This document shows positions 11,849-61,476 of a stretch of DNA of 64,000 bases, piece by piece. The position numbers were made by a program, and so were the translations under genes. The notes under the pieces were generated by a model. That model was not told the origin of the DNA, made no database searches, and saw nothing but the letters and a program-made list of their open reading frames with translations. The first letter of the stretch is position 1, and every line of letters begins with the position of its first letter. Source of the stretch: Ignavibacteriota bacterium (lineage in GTDB: Bacteria; Bacteroidota; Ignavibacteria; Palsa-1295); contig CAWBEI010000002.1 in NCBI GenBank assembly GCA_963787835.1, positions 640,001 through 704,000 on the forward strand, written 5' to 3'.

Positions 11849-12520
11849 TTAATTCTTTGCTGGGATCGAAGCCCCCTGCGTCTTTACCGCCATCATGACA
11901 TCGACTGTTCCATCGCCATCCACGTCTCCGGAGGCAATGCTGATGCTGATGAATTTGGGGGAAGCGGCATCGACTTCTTTGCGAATCGTGATCGGGGTGT
12001 GAGCGTGCGTGGCACTCGTCGTCGCACTGCCACTCAGTATGGCACTGCCATTTGTGGTTGCACTGCCGCTCGTCATGCCACTGCCGTTTGTCGGCATACC
12101 CATAATATTATTGGATGCCGTAGCATTATGCGAAGCAGTATTGGCATTCGTGAAGGTATAGGAGTTGGAAACGTTCGATGGCGCGCTGCTCGGTTTCGTC
12201 GTGATGATAACAGTATAATTCACCGGTGCGCCCTGGCTTTTTGCAGCCATTGCCCTGATCTGTGACCAGTCATCCATGGAGGTCTTGCCACCATCGACCC
12301 ATGCGACCTGCACATTGAACGTTCCGACCGGCAGCTTCCCGGCATCCACCGAACCATTAATGCAATGCACTATTGCGTGAAAACCTTTCGCAGGCCCGGA
12401 CATGCCGTCGATCTTAAGATATGCATCAAGGGCAGCCCGGGACGTCGTCGTACCCGCCATAAGCGCCAGAAGCGCTAGGGACACCGAAATCATTCTACCA
12501 ACGAAGCGATGATGTTTCAT
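11849..12520 (-). CDS. Secreted protein with Hcp-like terminal motifs
   Basis: Sec signal (SLALLALMAGTTTSRA), then DAYLKIDG, an S/T/N/G-rich linker, HTPITIRKEVDAASPK and GDVDGDG. Confidence 0.6.
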   Translation of the reverse strand: MKHHRFVGRMISVSLALLALMAGTTTSRAALDAYLKIDGMSGPAKGFHAIVHCINGSVDAGKLPVGTFNVQVAWVDGGKTSMDDWSQIRAMAAKSQGAPVNYTVIITTKPSSAPSNVSNSYTFTNANTASHNATASNNIMGMPTNGSGMTSGSATTNGSAILSGSATTSATHAHTPITIRKEVDAASPKFISISIASGDVDGDGTVDVMMAVKTQGASIPAKN

Positions 12521-12753
12521 AAAAGAAATCCTTTCTTGACAAAAATAGAACCTATAGCTTGGGAACAACCAGAGCCGCAAACAGTTGCATGGGCTAAAAT
12601 GTTTTTTACCCTGCCGGTATTGTGATAGGCGCTTCCTGCTCCGCTCACTCGCTGGTGTCTGACTTTAAGATGACGTTGTTGCATAAGCCTTTGTTCTTCT
12701 CTTCCGAACCCTTTACGTGCATGGTGCATGTTGTTAAAACAAAGGAGAATTTA

Positions 12754-13689
12754 GTGAACATATTAGTAACGGGCGGTGCAGGATTTATTGGGTCGCACAT
12801 TGTCGATGCCTTCGTCGGGCGCGGCGATGCCGTCGTGGTGCTCGATAATATGAGTGCTGGCCGTATGGAGAATCTTAATCCCGAAGCAGAATTTATCGAG
12901 GGAGATATTACCGATCGGGTACTCGTTAGGCGTCTTTTTCGCGAGCACCGATTCGAGATCGTGAATCATCACGCTGCACAACTCGATATTCGCAAAAGCG
13001 TTGCCGATCCTGTGTTCGATGCACAGCAAAATATCATCGGCTCACTGAATTTGCTCGAAGCCTCGAAAGAGACCGGAAGCGTAAAGCGGTTCATGTTCGC
13101 TTCGACCGGTGGTGCTGTTTATGGCGAACAGGAATATTTCCCAGCCGATGAAAAACACCCCACACAACCGATTGCCCCCTACGGAGTAGCAAAACGGAGT
13201 ATCGAATTGTATTTACATTATTATTATTCAATTCATGGGATACCGTATGTAGCGTTCCGGTACACGAATGTATATGGCCCTCGGCAAAGTCCCCACGGGG
13301 AGGCTGGAGTAGTAGCCATCTTCGCTGAACGATTATTGAATGGCGAGGCTGCGGTCATCAATGGCGATGGCAAGCAAACACGGGATTACGTTTATGTAGG
13401 AGATGTCGTCCGCTCGCACCTTCTCGCACTCGATACTTTAAACAGCTCCGACATTTTCAACATCTCGACTGCAAAAGAAACAGACGTCAATGAGATCTTC
13501 AATGTCCTAAGTGAACTCACAACGAACGGCAAAGCGACGCCTCAATATGGCCCCGCTAAAGCCGGCGAGCAGCAGCGCAGCATGTGCAGTTATGACCATG
13601 CAAAACAAATCCTCGGATGGGAGCCAGAGACTTCGCTTACTGAAGGCCTGCGTGAAACGGTAGAGTTCTTCAAGCGTAAACCTGTTTAA
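12754..13689 (+). CDS. NAD-dependent epimerase/dehydratase (UDP-glucose 4-epimerase-like)
   Basis: ILVTGGAGFIGSH, STGGAVYG, YGVAK and NVYGPRQ; AAGGAG RBS before GTG 12754. Confidence 0.9.
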   Translation: MNILVTGGAGFIGSHIVDAFVGRGDAVVVLDNMSAGRMENLNPEAEFIEGDITDRVLVRRLFREHRFEIVNHHAAQLDIRKSVADPVFDAQQNIIGSLNLLEASKETGSVKRFMFASTGGAVYGEQEYFPADEKHPTQPIAPYGVAKRSIELYLHYYYSIHGIPYVAFRYTNVYGPRQSPHGEAGVVAIFAERLLNGEAAVINGDGKQTRDYVYVGDVVRSHLLALDTLNSSDIFNISTAKETDVNEIFNVLSELTTNGKATPQYGPAKAGEQQRSMCSYDHAKQILGWEPETSLTEGLRETVEFFKRKPV

Positions 13690-13790
13690 GTAATAAGTAA
13701 GAGGTAAGAAGTAAGAATTAATCGGGCTTGGTCAAAACAAAAATGCGCTCTTTTTTTATTACCTCTTACCTCTTACTTATTACCTGTTAC
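13690..13790. repeat. Inverted heptamer arrays (GTAAGAR x4 / YTCTTAC-like x5) straddling a start codon
   Basis: 13690-13717 gtaataa gtaagag gtaagaa gtaagaa; 13756-13790 ttattac ctcttac ctcttac ttattac ctgttac. Confidence 0.85.
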
Positions 13791-15521
13791 CTCCTTACGA
13801 GTTGCGCGTCCCAGCAGCCTCCGCCAGGAGGACCGGTTGATACTACCCGGCCCAAGATTGACTCCGTGATGCCCCGGCATCGCCAGCTTAACGTTCCAAC
13901 CGATACGAAGCTGTATTTTCAATTCGAACGCGATGTGGATCAGTCCACCTTCGCAACTGCGTTTTCGATGACGCCGTATTTGAACGGTACGCCGAAGTTC
14001 CGATGGTCGGGCCGCAATGAAGTAACCATCACCCCGGCCACGCGTCTGAAAGATTCCACAACCTATACCGTTCAGCTTACCCGCGATCTAAAAACAAGTC
14101 TCGTAAATGGAACTGGCAGCCAGCTCGCAGCGCCGTTTTTTCTCACGTTCTCGACCGGCCCCGTTATCGATACCGGTATGCTTTCGGGATATTTGCTGAC
14201 TCCGATAAAATCCCAACCGATGAAACCAAGCGACCTGTTCATCTTTGCCTATGACATGTCAATACCTCATGCGGACACACTGAACTTTGCACACACACCT
14301 CCCGATCAACTAACGCAGCCCAACGATCAGGGCGTCTGGCAATTTTTAGCGATGAAAGTCGGCCACCGATACCGCGTGTTTGCGGTCGGGGATGTCTATC
14401 GGAACAAGGTATATGATGCCGGAGTCGATGCCTATGGCATACCGGCGGGAGATGTTACACTCGATAGTGTCGTCAAATCTGGGATCTATATTCGCATGTC
14501 ACCGGCGACCGATACGATCAAGCCGGAATTGCAGGACGTTGAAGTGGTCGATTCATTCCATATCCGAGCTCACTTTTCTGAACCGATCGATAGTCAGGAC
14601 GTTCATGCCCACAACTTTATTCTACACAGCGCTCCCCCTCCTAAAGAAGGAGGGGCCTGGGGGGTGGTCGCTGCCTTCCGTGAAAATCCAGAAAAGCATC
14701 CAAGCCAGATCACGCTTGTCACTTCCACTCCTCTAACGCCGAACCACGAATACACGCTGGAAGCGATTCGCGACAGCATCCACGATCTTTCCCATAATCC
14801 CCTCAGCGATTCGGCCCATAAAGTTACCTTTACCACGCCGCAGGAACTACGATCGCCCACACCTCCAAAATTCATTACGATGTCGCTTCGCGATAGCATC
14901 AAAGACATTTCTCAGTTGCCCTCGTTTCCTATCTCCTTCACGGATGCTGTGAATAAAGATTCCGCCGAACATGCCTTTACCATTACCGATACGGGGCACC
15001 ACTCCGTTCCCGCACTATTCCATTGGAACGACGATGCGAAAGTTTCTATGCGGCCTGCGGACAGCTTGGGTTCGAATGAGTTCTATCTGGTAACGGTCCG
15101 TTTGGGCAATATTCGGAGCGCGCTCACTCAAATTCCGGGCGTTGCAAAAGATACCGTGCTTCATTTCCATTTCAGGGCCGCGAATAACAGGGACTTCGGT
15201 ACCATCGGCGGGACAATTTCGATTGCGGATTCCTTCTTTGCCCGATCACCCAAAAGCGCATTAGTAGTGCAGGTGATGCAAAACGGGAATATTCTTACCG
15301 ATCAAAAGATACTTCCGCATGGCGAGCGGAAATTTCAATTCGATCAAATCCCAACTTCCACGTATCGCATTCGTGCGTTCCTTTCAGGGGATGGGAGCGG
15401 AACATACGATCCCGGTTCGGTCCAGCCCTGGCGTTTCGGAGTTCCCACCGGCGAGTACCCCAAACCATTCGATACACGCCCCCGCTGGACGATTCCCAAT
15501 ATTGATTTTGAAGTGAAATAG
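13743..15521 (+). CDS. Ig-like (Big_5) domain lipoprotein
   Basis: Lipobox LTSC followed by ASQQPPPGGPVDTTRP; repeated Big_5-like domains (YTVQL, FSTG, FSEPID). Confidence 0.8.
   Translation: MRSFFITSYLLLITCYLLTSCASQQPPPGGPVDTTRPKIDSVMPRHRQLNVPTDTKLYFQFERDVDQSTFATAFSMTPYLNGTPKFRWSGRNEVTITPATRLKDSTTYTVQLTRDLKTSLVNGTGSQLAAPFFLTFSTGPVIDTGMLSGYLLTPIKSQPMKPSDLFIFAYDMSIPHADTLNFAHTPPDQLTQPNDQGVWQFLAMKVGHRYRVFAVGDVYRNKVYDAGVDAYGIPAGDVTLDSVVKSGIYIRMSPATDTIKPELQDVEVVDSFHIRAHFSEPIDSQDVHAHNFILHSAPPPKEGGAWGVVAAFRENPEKHPSQITLVTSTPLTPNHEYTLEAIRDSIHDLSHNPLSDSAHKVTFTTPQELRSPTPPKFITMSLRDSIKDISQLPSFPISFTDAVNKDSAEHAFTITDTGHHSVPALFHWNDDAKVSMRPADSLGSNEFYLVTVRLGNIRSALTQIPGVAKDTVLHFHFRAANNRDFGTIGGTISIADSFFARSPKSALVVQVMQNGNILTDQKILPHGERKFQFDQIPTSTYRIRAFLSGDGSGTYDPGSVQPWRFGVPTGEYPKPFDTRPRWTIPNIDFEVK
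14633..14669. repeat. CCCCTCCT..AGGAGGGG..GGGGTGG hairpin (family D) inside CDS
   Basis: 8-bp stem plus G-rich tail, read in frame as PPPKEGGAWGVV. Confidence 0.6.
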
Positions 15522-15565: not shown

Positions 15566-15814
15566 ATGATGAATCTTGGACCATACCCGCATATCGCCTT
15601 AGACCCGAAGATCTGCGGCGGCGCACCGTGTATTGCTGGTACACGCATTCCCGTTCGAACCATCGGCTCCTATGTGCAAATGGGAATTTCGCCAGACGTC
15701 TTGATCCAAGATTATTACCCGTGGCTCACGAAAGCAGAAGTGTTTGCTGCACTTGCCTACTATTATGACCATCTTCCTGAGGTCGAGGCTATAGATATCG
15801 TAGAAGCTGTATAG
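15566..15814 (+). CDS. DUF433 antitoxin
   Basis: IALDPKICGGAPCIAGTRIPV and LTKAEVFAALAYY. Confidence 0.9.
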   Translation: MMNLGPYPHIALDPKICGGAPCIAGTRIPVRTIGSYVQMGISPDVLIQDYYPWLTKAEVFAALAYYYDHLPEVEAIDIVEAV

Positions 15815-15823
15815 TCTCAAACG

Positions 15824-16153
15824 ATGACACTGCCAGCCTTACTGCTCGATGAAAACATTCCCTACGGTTTGCAACGGGCGTTGCGGCAAAGAGGCTGGGA
15901 TGTCGTGCATGTGAAGGACATTGGAATGCGTAGCGCCAGCGACCCCGAAGTGCTTGATGCAGGCATTCGCTCCAATAGAGTCATACTCACGTATAATATT
16001 GGTGATTTCACTCGATTGGATGAGTTATTACGAAATGCAAATCGTCCGCATCCCGGCATTCTTGTTTCCGTTGAACGTGCGATCGGAGATTTGGTGGATA
16101 GGTTAGAACACTTTGACTTCTCGCAAATTGATTCTACATTTAGGCATCTGTAA
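15824..16153 (+). CDS. DUF5615 PIN-like toxin
   Basis: LLLDENIP, SDPEVL, RVILTYNIGDF and HPGIL; directly after DUF433. Confidence 0.88.
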   Translation: MTLPALLLDENIPYGLQRALRQRGWDVVHVKDIGMRSASDPEVLDAGIRSNRVILTYNIGDFTRLDELLRNANRPHPGILVSVERAIGDLVDRLEHFDFSQIDSTFRHL

Positions 16154-49112: not shown

Positions 49113-50294
49113 TTACTTTAAATCAATATATCTTTTTATTTCGTCTTCATTAAATCCGTATCCCCGAAGTTCCTCAGCACTGAATCCTATCAACTCGGGC
49201 TCTGTATAAAGATGAAGTCCCGTCTTTTCCTCAACGATTTCGCGTACTTCTTTCACGACGGAAAGCACTTCGTCCGCAGTTGCCTCACGCGTTACGTTCA
49301 GCACCACAACCGGCTGAGTTGGATTTAGCTGCACATTCCCACGCTGAAATCCTTTTAGCCCACATGATTCCAGGATAAAAGCCGATGGAATTTTAAGAAA
49401 GGATGAAGGATGAGGGTTGAGGGATGAAGGGACGTATTTTAAAAGCCGTTCGATTTGTTCTGGAATATTCCTTTCGAAATGATCGCGGAGATTTTCGAAT
49501 TGTTCCAGCGATATTATAGAATTCTTGAAGAACGATCCCGCATTCCCTTCGACCGACTCTGCGGGAAATGGGAATTTCCTGTCACGTATGGTTTTGATCG
49601 CTTCACGAATTTCTCTGAGCGATGGCTCGGGATTTTCCTCAAACCATTTTTTTACATCTGGGTATGAAAGATTACGTTTGGGAGTCGTACTTAATACCAG
49701 TGTTGTGTAAAGAATGATGTAACGATTTTTCTCGGTGGTATTGAAGATGCTTTTGCGATAACTAAACTTGCATGCTTCATTCGATAATATCTGAAGAGTT
49801 TTCGTTGTTCGGTCGAAGACCTCTACATTCACCAGCACATCTTTGATTTCCTGCCCGTACGCCCCAACATTTTGCACGGCGACAGCTCCTGCCCTTCCTG
49901 GAATTCGCGAGAGGTTCTCTATTCCCCAAAACTCATGTGATACGGCAAATTTTACCACATCATCCCAAACTTCGCCAGAGGCAATTCGCAGTGTAGCGCA
50001 CATCGTAGGCGATGCTTCTTCAGTTTGCGATCCCGGCGCGGAGTCACAAACTAAAGTTTGCGCTACAATTCCACGATTCGCAATATGAATAACCAACCCA
50101 TCGAACCCTCGGTCACTTACAAGCATATTGCTCCCTCCGCCGAGGATGAGCACTGGCAAATTTTGGAATTCTGCAAACTCGAATGCCTCGCTAAGTTGGG
50201 CAGGATCGGTAATTTCGAAAAAATATCGTGCAGGGCCGCCAATCTTGAAGGTGGTGAGCGGTTTTAGGGGGCGGTTTTGTTCGATGGGAAGCAA
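49113..50294 (-). CDS. murB: UDP-N-acetylmuramate dehydrogenase with two repeat-derived insertions
   Basis: TTFKIGGPA, LGGGSN, IPG..GA..VQNVGAYG, FSYRKSIF and NAGSFFKN. Confidence 0.92.
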   Translation of the reverse strand: MLPIEQNRPLKPLTTFKIGGPARYFFEITDPAQLSEAFEFAEFQNLPVLILGGGSNMLVSDRGFDGLVIHIANRGIVAQTLVCDSAPGSQTEEASPTMCATLRIASGEVWDDVVKFAVSHEFWGIENLSRIPGRAGAVAVQNVGAYGQEIKDVLVNVEVFDRTTKTLQILSNEACKFSYRKSIFNTTEKNRYIILYTTLVLSTTPKRNLSYPDVKKWFEENPEPSLREIREAIKTIRDRKFPFPAESVEGNAGSFFKNSIISLEQFENLRDHFERNIPEQIERLLKYVPSSLNPHPSSFLKIPSAFILESCGLKGFQRGNVQLNPTQPVVVLNVTREATADEVLSVVKEVREIVEEKTGLHLYTEPELIGFSAEELRGYGFNEDEIKRYIDLK

Positions 50295-57761: not shown

Positions 57762-58451
57762 GTGATCGCTCGCCAAAATACATTCCTCACTCCCGAACTG
57801 GTGCTCGATGCGTACCGCCAAGGACTGTTCCCAATGGCCGATGCGCGTGGCGCAATCAGTTTCTATGCCTACGACCCACGAGGCATTATTCCACTCGATG
57901 ATCGATTCACCGTTCGTCGTTCCCTGCGTCATGTTTTAGAAAAAAAGAATTTTCGCGTTACATTCGATACCGCTCCGCTCGAAATCCTGCGTGGCTGTGC
58001 CCGCTTCGAAGAGAACATTCCCCCTGAGGAACGATGGCTCACCGAAGAACTCATCGAGCTGTATCTAAAGCTCTTTGAACTAGGTTACATGCACACCGTC
58101 GAAGTTTGGGGCATAATGGATAGTGGAAAGTGGATAGAGGATAACAAAGAGTTACCATCCGAACACCAGCCACCCACCGTCAACTATCCACTATCAACTA
58201 CCCTGATCGGTGGACTCTATGGCCTCACCTTCGGCGCGGCATTTTGTGGCGAGTCGATGTTCTCCCGCGCCCCTTACGCCTCACAGATAGCTCTGGTGTA
58301 CCTCGTCGAGCGGCTGCGCAGAAAAGGCTTCCAACTGCTCGACGCCCAAATGCCAAGCGAGCATCTCCAGCAATTCGGACTCTACGAATGCTCGCAGGAG
58401 CAGTATCTTCCGTTATTCCAAACCGCCGCAAAAATGGATGTAAAGTGGTGA
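57762..58451 (+). CDS. aat: Leucyl/phenylalanyl-tRNA--protein transferase with repeat-derived insertion
   Basis: AYRQGLFPM, DPRGII, HTVEVW, GGLYG, FCGESMFS and LLDAQ. Confidence 0.92.
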   Translation: MIARQNTFLTPELVLDAYRQGLFPMADARGAISFYAYDPRGIIPLDDRFTVRRSLRHVLEKKNFRVTFDTAPLEILRGCARFEENIPPEERWLTEELIELYLKLFELGYMHTVEVWGIMDSGKWIEDNKELPSEHQPPTVNYPLSTTLIGGLYGLTFGAAFCGESMFSRAPYASQIALVYLVERLRRKGFQLLDAQMPSEHLQQFGLYECSQEQYLPLFQTAAKMDVKW

Positions 58452-59486: not shown

Positions 59487-59523
59487 CCACCGCTGTGGGG
59501 CAGTAGTTCATTCATATTTCCCA

Positions 59524-59561
59524 CTTCTTACTTCTTACCTCTTACCTCTTACTTCTTACCT
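59524..59561. repeat. Heptamer array CYTCTTA x5
   Basis: cttctta cttctta cctctta cctctta cttctta; same family as 13690-13790. Confidence 0.85.
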
Positions 59562-59574
59562 CGGCGAAGCCGGA

Positions 59575-59612
59575 AACCACCTCCGATACCGTAATAAGCT
59601 TCATGACTTCTT
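59575..59612. repeat. Direct-repeat copy of the GT9 3' end (partner at 60310-60348)
   Basis: AACCACCTCCGATACCGTAATAAGCTTCATG identical over 31 bp, then ACTTCTT after a 1-nt indel. Confidence 0.9.
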
Positions 59613-59628
59613 GGAGCGATTCCTTTCA

Positions 59629-59654
59629 ATTTGTTGTAATATGTTACAACAAAT
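59629..59654. promoter_or_regulatory. Probable higBA operator
   Basis: Perfect 11-bp arms ATTTGTTGTAA-tatg-TTACAACAAAT abutting the higB ATG. Confidence 0.65.
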
Positions 59655-59940
59655 GCATATCATCACTCGGAAGCGCCTTAACGAGTTTGTCGAGAGACAT
59701 CCGGATGCCTTCACGGGTTTCGATGAATGGTACCGCAAGGCCAAGCGAGCAAAATGGCAAAATTTTGCCGAGCTTAAGGCGACGTTCGGCTCCGCAGATC
59801 TGGTCGGAAGATATATTGTCTTTAATATCGGCGGCAATAAATTTCGACTCATTGCAAGCCTCCGATACCAACGGCAGAAAGTATATATCAGAGCATGCTT
59901 AACGCATAAGGAATACGATGAAAACAAATGGAAAGACTAA
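59653..59940 (+). CDS. higB: HigB toxin
   Basis: MHIITRKRL, TFGSADLV, VFNIGGNKFRLI and THKEYD..KW. Confidence 0.92.
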   Translation: MHIITRKRLNEFVERHPDAFTGFDEWYRKAKRAKWQNFAELKATFGSADLVGRYIVFNIGGNKFRLIASLRYQRQKVYIRACLTHKEYDENKWKD

Positions 59941-60223
59941 ATTAAAATCCGAGAGTAGTGCCGTCATGGCATGGACTCCGTCCTCGCACATCATCAATGT
60001 TCCCGCAAACGAAGCAGAGTACAATGAATTAGTTGCCGTGCTCGATTATTTGCTCGACACCAGCGATCCCGATGAACAAAGCCCGGCCGCTGCGTTAGTG
60101 GATATGATCGGCTCACTCATCGAAAGCTACGAGAACGCAAACGTGCCCGAACTTTCAGCTCCCCGCCGCAAAAGCCGCGCACATCGCCCCATCATTACTC
60201 CTCGCCAATTTAAAGCAGCTTAA
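59918..60223 (+). CDS. HigA-like antitoxin N-domain, lacking a recognisable HTH
   Basis: NEAEYNELV..LDYLLD..LIESYE matches the HigA toxin-binding half; the protein ends in a basic tail. Confidence 0.65.
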   Translation: MKTNGKTKLKSESSAVMAWTPSSHIINVPANEAEYNELVAVLDYLLDTSDPDEQSPAAALVDMIGSLIESYENANVPELSAPRRKSRAHRPIITPRQFKAA

Positions 60224-60240
60224 GGTGCGTCCTCCCCAAT

Positions 60241-60303
60241 TTATAATTCATACTTCATAATTCATACTTCATAATTCATACTTCATAATTCATACTTCAT
60301 AAT
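60241..60303. repeat. Heptamer array (TCATAAT/TCATACT alternating, 9 units)
   Basis: Direct reading; encodes the GT9 C-terminus IMKYEL and its stop on the minus strand. Confidence 0.9.
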
Positions 60304-61476
60304 TGCCCCAACCACCTCCGATACCGTAATAAGCTTCATGCACTTCTTATGCCCGCAATTATGCACGTTGTAAGGCTTTAAATACCCAAGTTGGAGGCAG
60401 GGAGAACACTCAACTCCTTTGAATACATCAATATGCTTCTCTGACAGACTACGATAGCCCCAATAATCGGACATTCCAAAAACACGGACTGTCGGAGTTC
60501 CGACCGCCATTGCGATATGACCGATACCACTATCATTCCCAATCATTGCATCACATCGCGAAAGCAACGAAGCAACTTCGAAAATAGAATAACTACCAGA
60601 TAAATTGATTGACGATGATTTGACAAATTTTGATGCCTCCTCTATTTGTTCTTTCTCGCTCGCAACCCCGAAATGCAAAAAAACAGGATCATATTCTACT
60701 GAAAGATCACGCAAAACTTCAGCAAACCGATCATCGTCCCATTTTTTCCAATGTTGTGCCTTACTTGCACCAAAGTGAGTTCCTATCACAACTCGACCAT
60801 CAAGCTGATTCTTTAACCAAAAAGATTCAGCAAATTTCTTTTCTGAATCATTCAAAGAAATATTCGGAGTAATGTAGGTAACCTCTTCTCCAATTAATTT
60901 GCTAATTAGCCTTGAATGTCGACTCGTTTCGTGTTCATGATCTTGCTTAAGCCTTACTGAAATATTGAACATTTGGTTGGGACGCGGCTTGTACCATTTA
61001 TCCCAGGAAAAAACGTGACCCACGCGAATCGGCGCGCTAAGTATCGCACTTGTGAAGTAAGGGGTCGGCGACATGTAGGTGCAGATAATTATATCATACT
61101 TTTCTTTCTTAATTTTATGGTTCAAACCTCGTAATTCGGACAATGATAATGATTTGAAATCCGCTTCCAAAACCATGCGGAATTCTCTTCCTTCCATTTG
61201 CATTAGTCTCTGCAGCATTGGTCGGCTTTGGGATTCTGTTCCAACAATAACGTCAATTTGAGCCATCGGAAAAGCGTTGAGAATGGCTCGGAGCGATTGC
61301 TGAAACATGAGAGCATCACCAAGGCCCATATATCCGAAAATGAGGATTTTGATCTGCTCCTCTTGAAATTTCGTGACTTTAGGGTGTTTTGAAGGTTTTA
61401 GGTATGACAGAATGATAGCCAAAACCGTTTTGGTTAGCAGATAAGCAACCTTTAGTCCTCGTGAAAAAATAGCCAA
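60283..61476 (-). CDS. Glycosyltransferase family 9 (heptosyltransferase-like)
   Basis: GLGDALM, KKW..DRF, GNDSGIGHIA, CSPC and CMKLITV; AT-rich. Confidence 0.88.
   Translation of the reverse strand: MAIFSRGLKVAYLLTKTVLAIILSYLKPSKHPKVTKFQEEQIKILIFGYMGLGDALMFQQSLRAILNAFPMAQIDVIVGTESQSRPMLQRLMQMEGREFRMVLEADFKSLSLSELRGLNHKIKKEKYDIIICTYMSPTPYFTSAILSAPIRVGHVFSWDKWYKPRPNQMFNISVRLKQDHEHETSRHSRLISKLIGEEVTYITPNISLNDSEKKFAESFWLKNQLDGRVVIGTHFGASKAQHWKKWDDDRFAEVLRDLSVEYDPVFLHFGVASEKEQIEEASKFVKSSSINLSGSYSIFEVASLLSRCDAMIGNDSGIGHIAMAVGTPTVRVFGMSDYWGYRSLSEKHIDVFKGVECSPCLQLGYLKPYNVHNCGHKKCMKLITVSEVVGAIMKYEL

Follow-up and report, generated by a model that had tools for sequence, protein, structure and literature searches.

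Heptamer-repeat hairpin encoding the signal-peptide core of a predicted lipoprotein in an Ignavibacteriota bacterium: a probable replacement of an older signal

Background

How tandemly repeated DNA can come to encode the hydrophobic core of a signal peptide, and what it does there, is the question raised by a locus of an Ignavibacteriota bacterium. The locus lies in a window of 64,000 nucleotides, i.e. the whole stretch of DNA that was analysed and to which all coordinates refer unless a contig is named, and consists of two complementary heptamer arrays situated where an epimerase gene meets a gene for a predicted lipoprotein. Heptamer repeats have long been known in Bacteroidetes-like bacteria and cyanobacteria, but have stayed unexplained. 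A first-pass annotation of the window had read the downstream array as a signal-peptide core taken over from repeat DNA and the upstream array as its pairing partner. It had also proposed that the repeat now provides an export signal, and that it could tune translation or make the gene phase variable by 7-bp slippage. In this study, we compared the locus with its orthologs, analysed the heptamer arrays of the whole genome (G000), and weighed these proposals against further explanations.

Results

Structure of the locus and predicted hairpin

All features of the locus lie on the plus strand. The NAD-dependent epimerase/dehydratase gene (12724..13689, start approximate; PF01370, E 3e-59) ends with the stop codon TAA at 13687-13689, which lies in the same phase as the first arm of the repeat; in same-genus orthologs, the end of an epimerase gene likewise lies upstream. 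It is followed by a purine-rich, non-coding 5′ arm of four heptamers of the GTAAGAA family (13690..13717), the full extent of this array being about 13687-13721, starting at the epimerase stop codon. Then come a 38-nt loop (13718..13755) with an A-rich leader and the start codon ATG at 13743-13745, and a pyrimidine-rich 3′ arm (13756..13798) encoding F5-T19 of the lipoprotein. This arm contains five heptamers at 13756-13790 (TTATTAC, CTCTTAC, CTCTTAC, TTATTAC and CTGTTAC) and a degenerate sixth unit of 8 nt (13791-13798), and can alternatively be read as a 21-nt unit present twice.

The 28-nt arms 13690-13717 and 13756-13783, which lie 38 nt apart, are reverse-complementary at 26 of 28 positions. 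For the RNA of 13680-13810, a minimum free energy of −36.9 kcal/mol was predicted (z −4.31; as good in 0 of 200 shuffled sequences) with ATG 13743 in the loop, so the pairing proposed in the first-pass annotation was borne out. In a wider predicted fold, the arms were about 90% paired, and the region from −15 to +3 at the ATG was 0.76 unpaired. The loop 13718-13755 contains no Shine-Dalgarno motif, no intrinsic terminator (short GC-rich stem and U run) was found in 12400-14000, and promoter and terminator scans gave no result on the plus strand. Also, no Rfam family matched at gathering score, the only matches being miRNA precursors far below their gathering scores. The hairpin has a long terminal stem with tandem heptamers, as rRNA intervening sequences (IVS) do, and stands between two protein genes, not inside an rRNA gene. 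Directly 3′ of the lipoprotein gene, a DUF433 and DUF5615/PIN-like gene pair is located at 15566-16153.

Lipoprotein gene, start codon and signal peptide

The ORF from ATG 13743 (13743..15521) encodes a predicted lipoprotein of 592 aa, reading MRSFFITSYLLLITCYLLTSC, with bacterial Ig-like (Big_5) domains (PF13205, E 2e-32, three stretches). The protein was matched in all 41 genomes searched, while NCBIfam gave no family matching it. A signal for signal peptidase II (SPII) has a short N-terminus with a basic residue, an uncharged hydrophobic core and a lipobox of the form [LVI][ASTVI][GAS]C. These features are present as M-R2, the uncharged stretch F4-L17 (best 8-residue hydropathy 2.52) and L-T-S-C21. 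As had been read earlier from the sequence and as the translation confirms, the heptamers encode ITSYLLLITCY (I6-Y16), beginning inside codon F5. L17 follows and then the lipobox L18-T19-S20-C21 (13794..13805), of which Cys21 is the predicted lipidated residue. The 3′ arm of the repeat supplies nearly the entire hydrophobic core before LTSC.

Genome-wide, the start context of G000 shows A weakly at −3 (0.38), and 10% of 1221 genes carry a Shine-Dalgarno-like motif. Therefore, this context could not rank ATG 13743 against TTG 13728, and the orthologs decided: ATG-CGC stands at the same place of the loop in five of them (L002, L005, L006, L008 and L064). The next in-frame ATG is M43, and a start there would lose the conserved Cys.

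Signal peptides of the orthologs

The ortholog set comprised 32 rows, 31 of them distinct (L001-L030, L064 and L066), after exclusion of L061-L063, which equal the loci L006, L005 and L010, and of L065, which has the same length and identity as L064. A Cys before a PxGG motif and behind a hydrophobic stretch was present in 32 of the 32 rows. An array at the signal site was found in 10 of the 17 rows inside the genus clade, the hairpin being missing or decayed in the other 7; the 15 loci from outside the genus had none. Because the Cys and the hydrophobic stretch are found throughout, and free of repeats in all 15 loci outside the genus, the signal peptide is ancestral and predates the repeat. 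Thus, repeat DNA does encode the h-region of this lipoprotein, as proposed in the first-pass annotation, but the further proposal that it newly provided the export signal is not supported; the suggested comparison of ortholog signal peptides, with its repeat-free signals bearing the same Cys, speaks against it.

Within the genus, the arrays are composed of units of the GTAAGAA, AATTAAG, AAGTATG, AATTACG, TTCCTCA and AAATGAC families, and the units at the focal site are mostly 1-2 changes from each other. The distance between the end of the array and the Cys ranges from 17 to 2 codons, forming a gradient from arrays ahead of an ordinary core to arrays replacing it. At one end are L004, L005, L011 and L064, in which 11-17 codons separate the array from the Cys and a non-repeat hydrophobic stretch follows the array; the G000 array spans 15 to 3 codons before the Cys, i.e. 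nearly the entire h-region. An in-frame start was present in 31 of the 32 rows, in several of them inside the purine arm (MKYE, MRITNYE). L006 (G006:C2; G006 is 80% complete) carries TGA as its third codon, lacks any other in-frame start ahead of the Cys, and is either a pseudogene or an assembly error. In L004, the ortholog of G005, the signal peptide contains a fresh TTCGTCA-type array followed by an apparently decayed TTCATAC-type one, which suggests successive layers. The ortholog tree, a quick search used descriptively, is compatible both with one gain followed by drift and losses and with several gains.

A genome-wide family of heptamer hairpins, also around PF05635 genes

The focal hairpin is one of 45 in the genome, and arms of the same family also flank four-helix-bundle genes, both of which the first-pass annotation had overlooked. 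In G000, 265 period-7 arrays were found at a score of at least 10; periods 5, 8, 10 and 11 gave 10, 7, 5 and 17. Among array pairs within 150 nt, 45 had the order purine-then-pyrimidine, 7 the reverse order, 2 were RR and 4 YY. The units of both arms were identical in 29 of the 45 hairpins versus 10% expected at random. Most hairpins (38 of 45) are located between or within co-oriented genes and 3 between convergent genes, and many directly abut a stop codon and a start codon. The arms share no fixed sequence, only the period of 7 and the polarity. The genome thus contains dispersed copies with inverted ends, as known from MITE-like elements, and filled and empty alleles occur across species at xseA.

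Four pairs with loops of 364-404 nt enclose genes of the PF05635 four-helix-bundle family. Both arrays reached the threshold at 4 of the 5 G000 PF05635 genes over the cut-off, and the fifth has a weak left array and a visibly degenerate right array. In relatives, both arrays with complementary units were present at 18 of 30 best-hit PF05635 loci, while 12 lacked one or both at threshold. One PF05635 gene with heptamer arms (G000:C6:65759-66500) lies among tRNA-like sequences, with more arrays on both sides. Since the same architecture flanks PF05635 genes, the focal hairpin has the build of a gene-less cassette; its loop is without a PF05635 ORF, and the six PF05635 matches of G000 are located elsewhere. 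Because none of the 32 ortholog rows has a full cassette with a four-helix-bundle gene at the focal junction, we infer descent from a cassette at this site rather than reading it from an ortholog.

Coding properties of the two arms and sites that carry arrays

In the 265 arrays, the frames of the pyrimidine strand had a mean hydropathy of +0.95 with 2.8% charged residues, and those of the purine strand a mean hydropathy of −0.97 with 40% charged residues and a stop in 86%. For frames of random intergenic DNA, the values were −0.28 and 22%. That a pyrimidine arm is hydrophobic and nearly uncharged in any frame likely explains its tolerance in signal peptides, and the fixed arm order thereby matches the order of stop, charged start and hydrophobic core.

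Signal peptides were judged in two ways, by visual inspection and with a home-made rule. Inspection placed 12 of the 49 frame-open pyrimidine arrays of G000 in the h-region of a signal peptide, with only a few codons between the array and the cleavage motif. Six of the 11 other than the focal one were scanned for families: five match families typical of exported proteins, two of these by a sorting-domain hit below the cut-off only, and one had no match; a cytoplasmic family gaining a signal was not seen among the genes scanned. The home-made rule, which over-calls, is partly circular and can give a hint only, called a signal peptide in 664 of 2966 genes. By this partly circular rule, arrays inside the N-terminus were found in 7 of the 664 called genes versus 6 of the 2302 others (p 0.013), and arrays within 60 nt upstream in 3 of 664 versus 59 of 2302 (p 0.0003).

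Another site that takes such elements is a loop of the exonuclease VII large subunit XseA (L075-L088). It contains an in-frame heptamer hairpin in G000, G014, G006, G010 and G007, unrelated proline-rich inserts (C-rich/G-rich) in G002, G004, G008 and G012, and a short linker only in G009, G001, G003, G015 and most class-level relatives. Such variety is as expected when elements are kept at permissive sites.

Further arrays were observed in the window. A heptamer hairpin at 58114-58203 is in frame inside ORF 57762-58451, which we take to resemble a leucyl/phenylalanyl-tRNA-protein transferase, and adds a segment of about 30 residues. A minus-strand coding array at 49399-49430 encodes PSSLNPHPSSF in the middle of a protein. 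At 59523-60340, two short ORFs, presumably similar to a HigB/HigA toxin-antitoxin pair, are enclosed by two perfect direct repeats of 31 bp (59575-59605 and 60310-60340), and a pyrimidine-type heptamer array precedes each repeat.

Co-variation of the arms at two lipoprotein loci

Both arms change together at two lipoprotein loci. At the Big_5 lipoprotein locus, cognate arms from 15 genus genomes pair 8.0 kcal/mol better than non-cognate arms after removal of row and column effects, a value reached in 0 of 20,000 permutations; the 15 repeat-free outgroup loci gave a cognate excess of 0.9 (p 0.21). The second locus encodes an LptE-like lipoprotein (PF04390, E 3e-6), with coding arrays of seven unit types in 10 of 15 genus genomes and in none of 10 outside. 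Here, the cognate excess was 9.3 in the genus versus none outside (p 0.53). Within one genome, the unit types differ between the two loci, e.g. in G000, G009, G005 and G003, and the arms of one locus pair better mutually than with those of the other locus (Wilcoxon p 0.015). All of these tests ignore kinship among the genomes. Some pairs carry identical variant units in both arms, amounting to 24 shared departures from the consensus over the hairpins, 2 of them at the focal locus. The LptE-like gene of G002 has no ATG, GTG or TTG in the open frame within 50 codons of the Cys, while 14 of the 15 genus genomes have one. Matching arms are equally expected if an RNA stem is under selection.

Discussion

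Our preferred explanation, to which we assign a probability of roughly 0.6, is that a gene-less hairpin overwrote the core of a pre-existing signal peptide and is a passenger, one arm of which was exapted. It starts from direct observations, namely the arrays and their family, the link to PF05635, the ancestral signal, and the turnover of units with matching arms. A heptamer hairpin without a gene, built like the arms around PF05635 genes, sits at the epimerase/lipoprotein junction and would derive from a four-helix-bundle cassette. It may have arrived or been rewritten as a unit, either by insertion or by slippage with one arm copied from the other, and its 3′ arm likely overwrote the hydrophobic core of an older signal peptide. 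The purine arm with its stops and charged residues would fit behind the upstream stop codon. Whatever its frame, the pyrimidine arm would yield residues that are hydrophobic and carry no charge; little more is required of a signal peptide, which is later removed. Because of this effect of the genetic code on the two arms, the hairpin is likely tolerated, and it would be a passenger rather than a selected regulator.

The co-variation of the arms at two lipoprotein loci would also fit a selected RNA element, i.e. a stem of 24-28 bp in an epimerase-lipoprotein transcript that is cut by RNase III or slows initiation and thereby sets the output, with units drifting and pairing kept. The location of 38 of the 45 hairpins between or in co-oriented genes, many flush with stop and start codons, agrees with such control, and the genome encodes RNase III. 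According to the portions of the two papers available, the substrates of this enzyme include the 28-bp stem with heptamers of the Coxiella IVS (PMC4990558) and, in H. influenzae, a heptamer hairpin of the hmw 5′-UTR (PMC12721329). Nevertheless, we regard a selected RNA element as improbable, though worth keeping in mind, since 7 of 17 genus rows have either no hairpin or a decayed one, all 15 outgroup loci have none, and the start region is predicted to be mostly open. The counts of G-U versus A-C sense-strand mismatches, 22 to 14 (p 0.24; 0 to 1 at the focal locus), give no clear bias. Also, the same hairpins occur in frame in the middle of xseA and other genes, where a cut would harm. With a cut at the focal stem, the start codon would be severed from the remaining coding sequence; tuning of translation by the hairpin, as suggested in the first-pass annotation, is possible. 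Comparably doubtful is a selfish element that accommodates itself, its polarity being a blueprint of a signal peptide: the purine arm would give the upstream stop and often the start and the charged n-region, and the pyrimidine arm the h-region. Such an element would land repeatedly 5′ of exported, even essential genes, be mobilised by the four-helix-bundle protein, and put the mRNA under RNase III control. Clearly less likely still is a local origin of the arrays, independent of any cassette, through slippage in the AT-rich DNA of the junction together with quasi-palindrome template switching. The small distances between the units at the focal site, the resemblance of the 3′ arm to a 21-nt duplication and the shared variant units (24 overall, 2 here), as inter-arm copying would give, are in line with it. 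However, slippage alone fails to explain the exclusive period of 7, and the fixed purine-then-pyrimidine order, the same build around PF05635 genes across families and the whole hairpins as in-frame inserts in xseA argue against it as well.

Two further explanations have very little probability. One is a contingency locus, considered in the first-pass annotation, in which gain or loss of 7 bp would turn the lipoprotein on and off. It could build on the frame shift caused by a one-unit change, and, as far as the consulted sections of PMC12721329 describe, phase variation through heptamer tracts occurs in H. influenzae hmw, with 11-63 repeats compared to a longest perfect tract of 18 nt, i.e. 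2.6 units, here. The array reads as a frame-neutral 21-nt duplication, and no ortholog is frameshifted within it; the one row with no in-frame start, L006, has a stop at codon 3 instead. The same arrays occur in the signal of the LptE-like protein. The LptE family is needed for assembly of LPS. A related contig (run X5) has 13 gap letters at 13684-13738, none of them in the coding arm, and contigs X1 (13658-13808), X2 (13492-13771) and X3 (13589-13765) match without differences, while X4 has no long piece across the hairpin; these are assembled at a depth of 2-3, possibly from the source sample, and blind to rare alleles. Among the low-depth contigs and the species-level orthologs, frame-shifting unit-number alleles were not found. 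Slippage phase variation is unlikely and close to refuted. Just as remote is the idea that the repeat gave a once cytoplasmic protein its export signal. Although the array covers nearly the entire h-region in G000, repeat-free signals with the same Cys occur in all 15 outgroup loci and several genus members, and in L004, L005, L011 and L064 the array is followed by a non-repeat hydrophobic stretch and ends 11-17 codons short of the Cys. Provided that those Cys motifs do act as signals, the ortholog set refutes this reading for the present gene.

For the overwriting of an older signal by a passenger hairpin, several known systems offer parallels, cited here from the text that could be consulted of each paper. 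The IVS in the 23S rRNA of Coxiella burnetii, which encodes S23p (PF05635), has a terminal stem of about 28 bp with tandem heptamers (PMC4990558), and the same build flanks the PF05635 genes of G000. In contrast, the focal element would be in an mRNA, a 38-nt loop with the host start codon replaces the ORF, and one arm is translated. The intergenic TAACTGA repeats of Beggiatoaceae, Cyanobacteria and Bacteroidetes are likewise short heptamer arrays near start codons, with stops in all frames of one strand and the other strand translatable and tolerated at protein ends (MacGregor 2015, PMC4679880). They are described there as direct repeats of one unit, and an inverted-pair rule, a link to PF05635 or signal peptides are not part of the description in the text consulted; here, many units occur together, and at one site they take each other's place. 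MITE-like elements such as the Rickettsia palindromic elements, Yersinia YPAL/RU-2 (YPO1552) and Neisseria NEMIS are small hairpins read in frame into proteins, one of them reported as part of a predicted signal peptide, and NEMIS hairpins have been proposed as RNase III targets (PMC2229807). Unlike the heptamer arms with no fixed sequence, these elements have a fixed consensus and several have transposon-like ends (PMC2229807), and the focal hairpin replaces part of an old signal rather than forming a new gene. Finally, the (ATCTTTC)n tract of H. influenzae hmw1/2 is a heptamer tract in a hairpin adjoining the start of a surface-protein gene (PMC12721329), and its unit is a rotation of one common G000 unit; those repeats are in the UTR, while the 2.6 perfect units here are in coding sequence and paired with a mirror array.

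Heptamers near starts and protein ends (PMC4679880) or in ORF-bearing rRNA IVS (PMC4990558), and mobile hairpins in a predicted signal peptide (PMC2229807), have thus been described already, as far as the consulted text of these papers goes. A search of open PMC and bioRxiv text gave no paper that describes, in general terms, PF05635 cassettes with heptamer arms or signal peptides replaced by their empty copies. New from the focal locus are the ortholog series with the ancestral signal, the replacement of units, and the co-variation of the arms at two genes.

Conclusions

The focal locus is most likely neither a new export mechanism nor a phase switch. It provides a natural series in which one signal peptide is found repeat-free, partly replaced and almost wholly replaced, with varied units and matching arms, and thereby accounts for odd annotated N-termini such as LLLTSY and FILHTSY. 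The locus is suited for a small reporter test distinguishing a passenger from an RNase III-controlled regulator. For these bacteria, it shows a route by which essential exported genes can take up repeat DNA and come to no harm.
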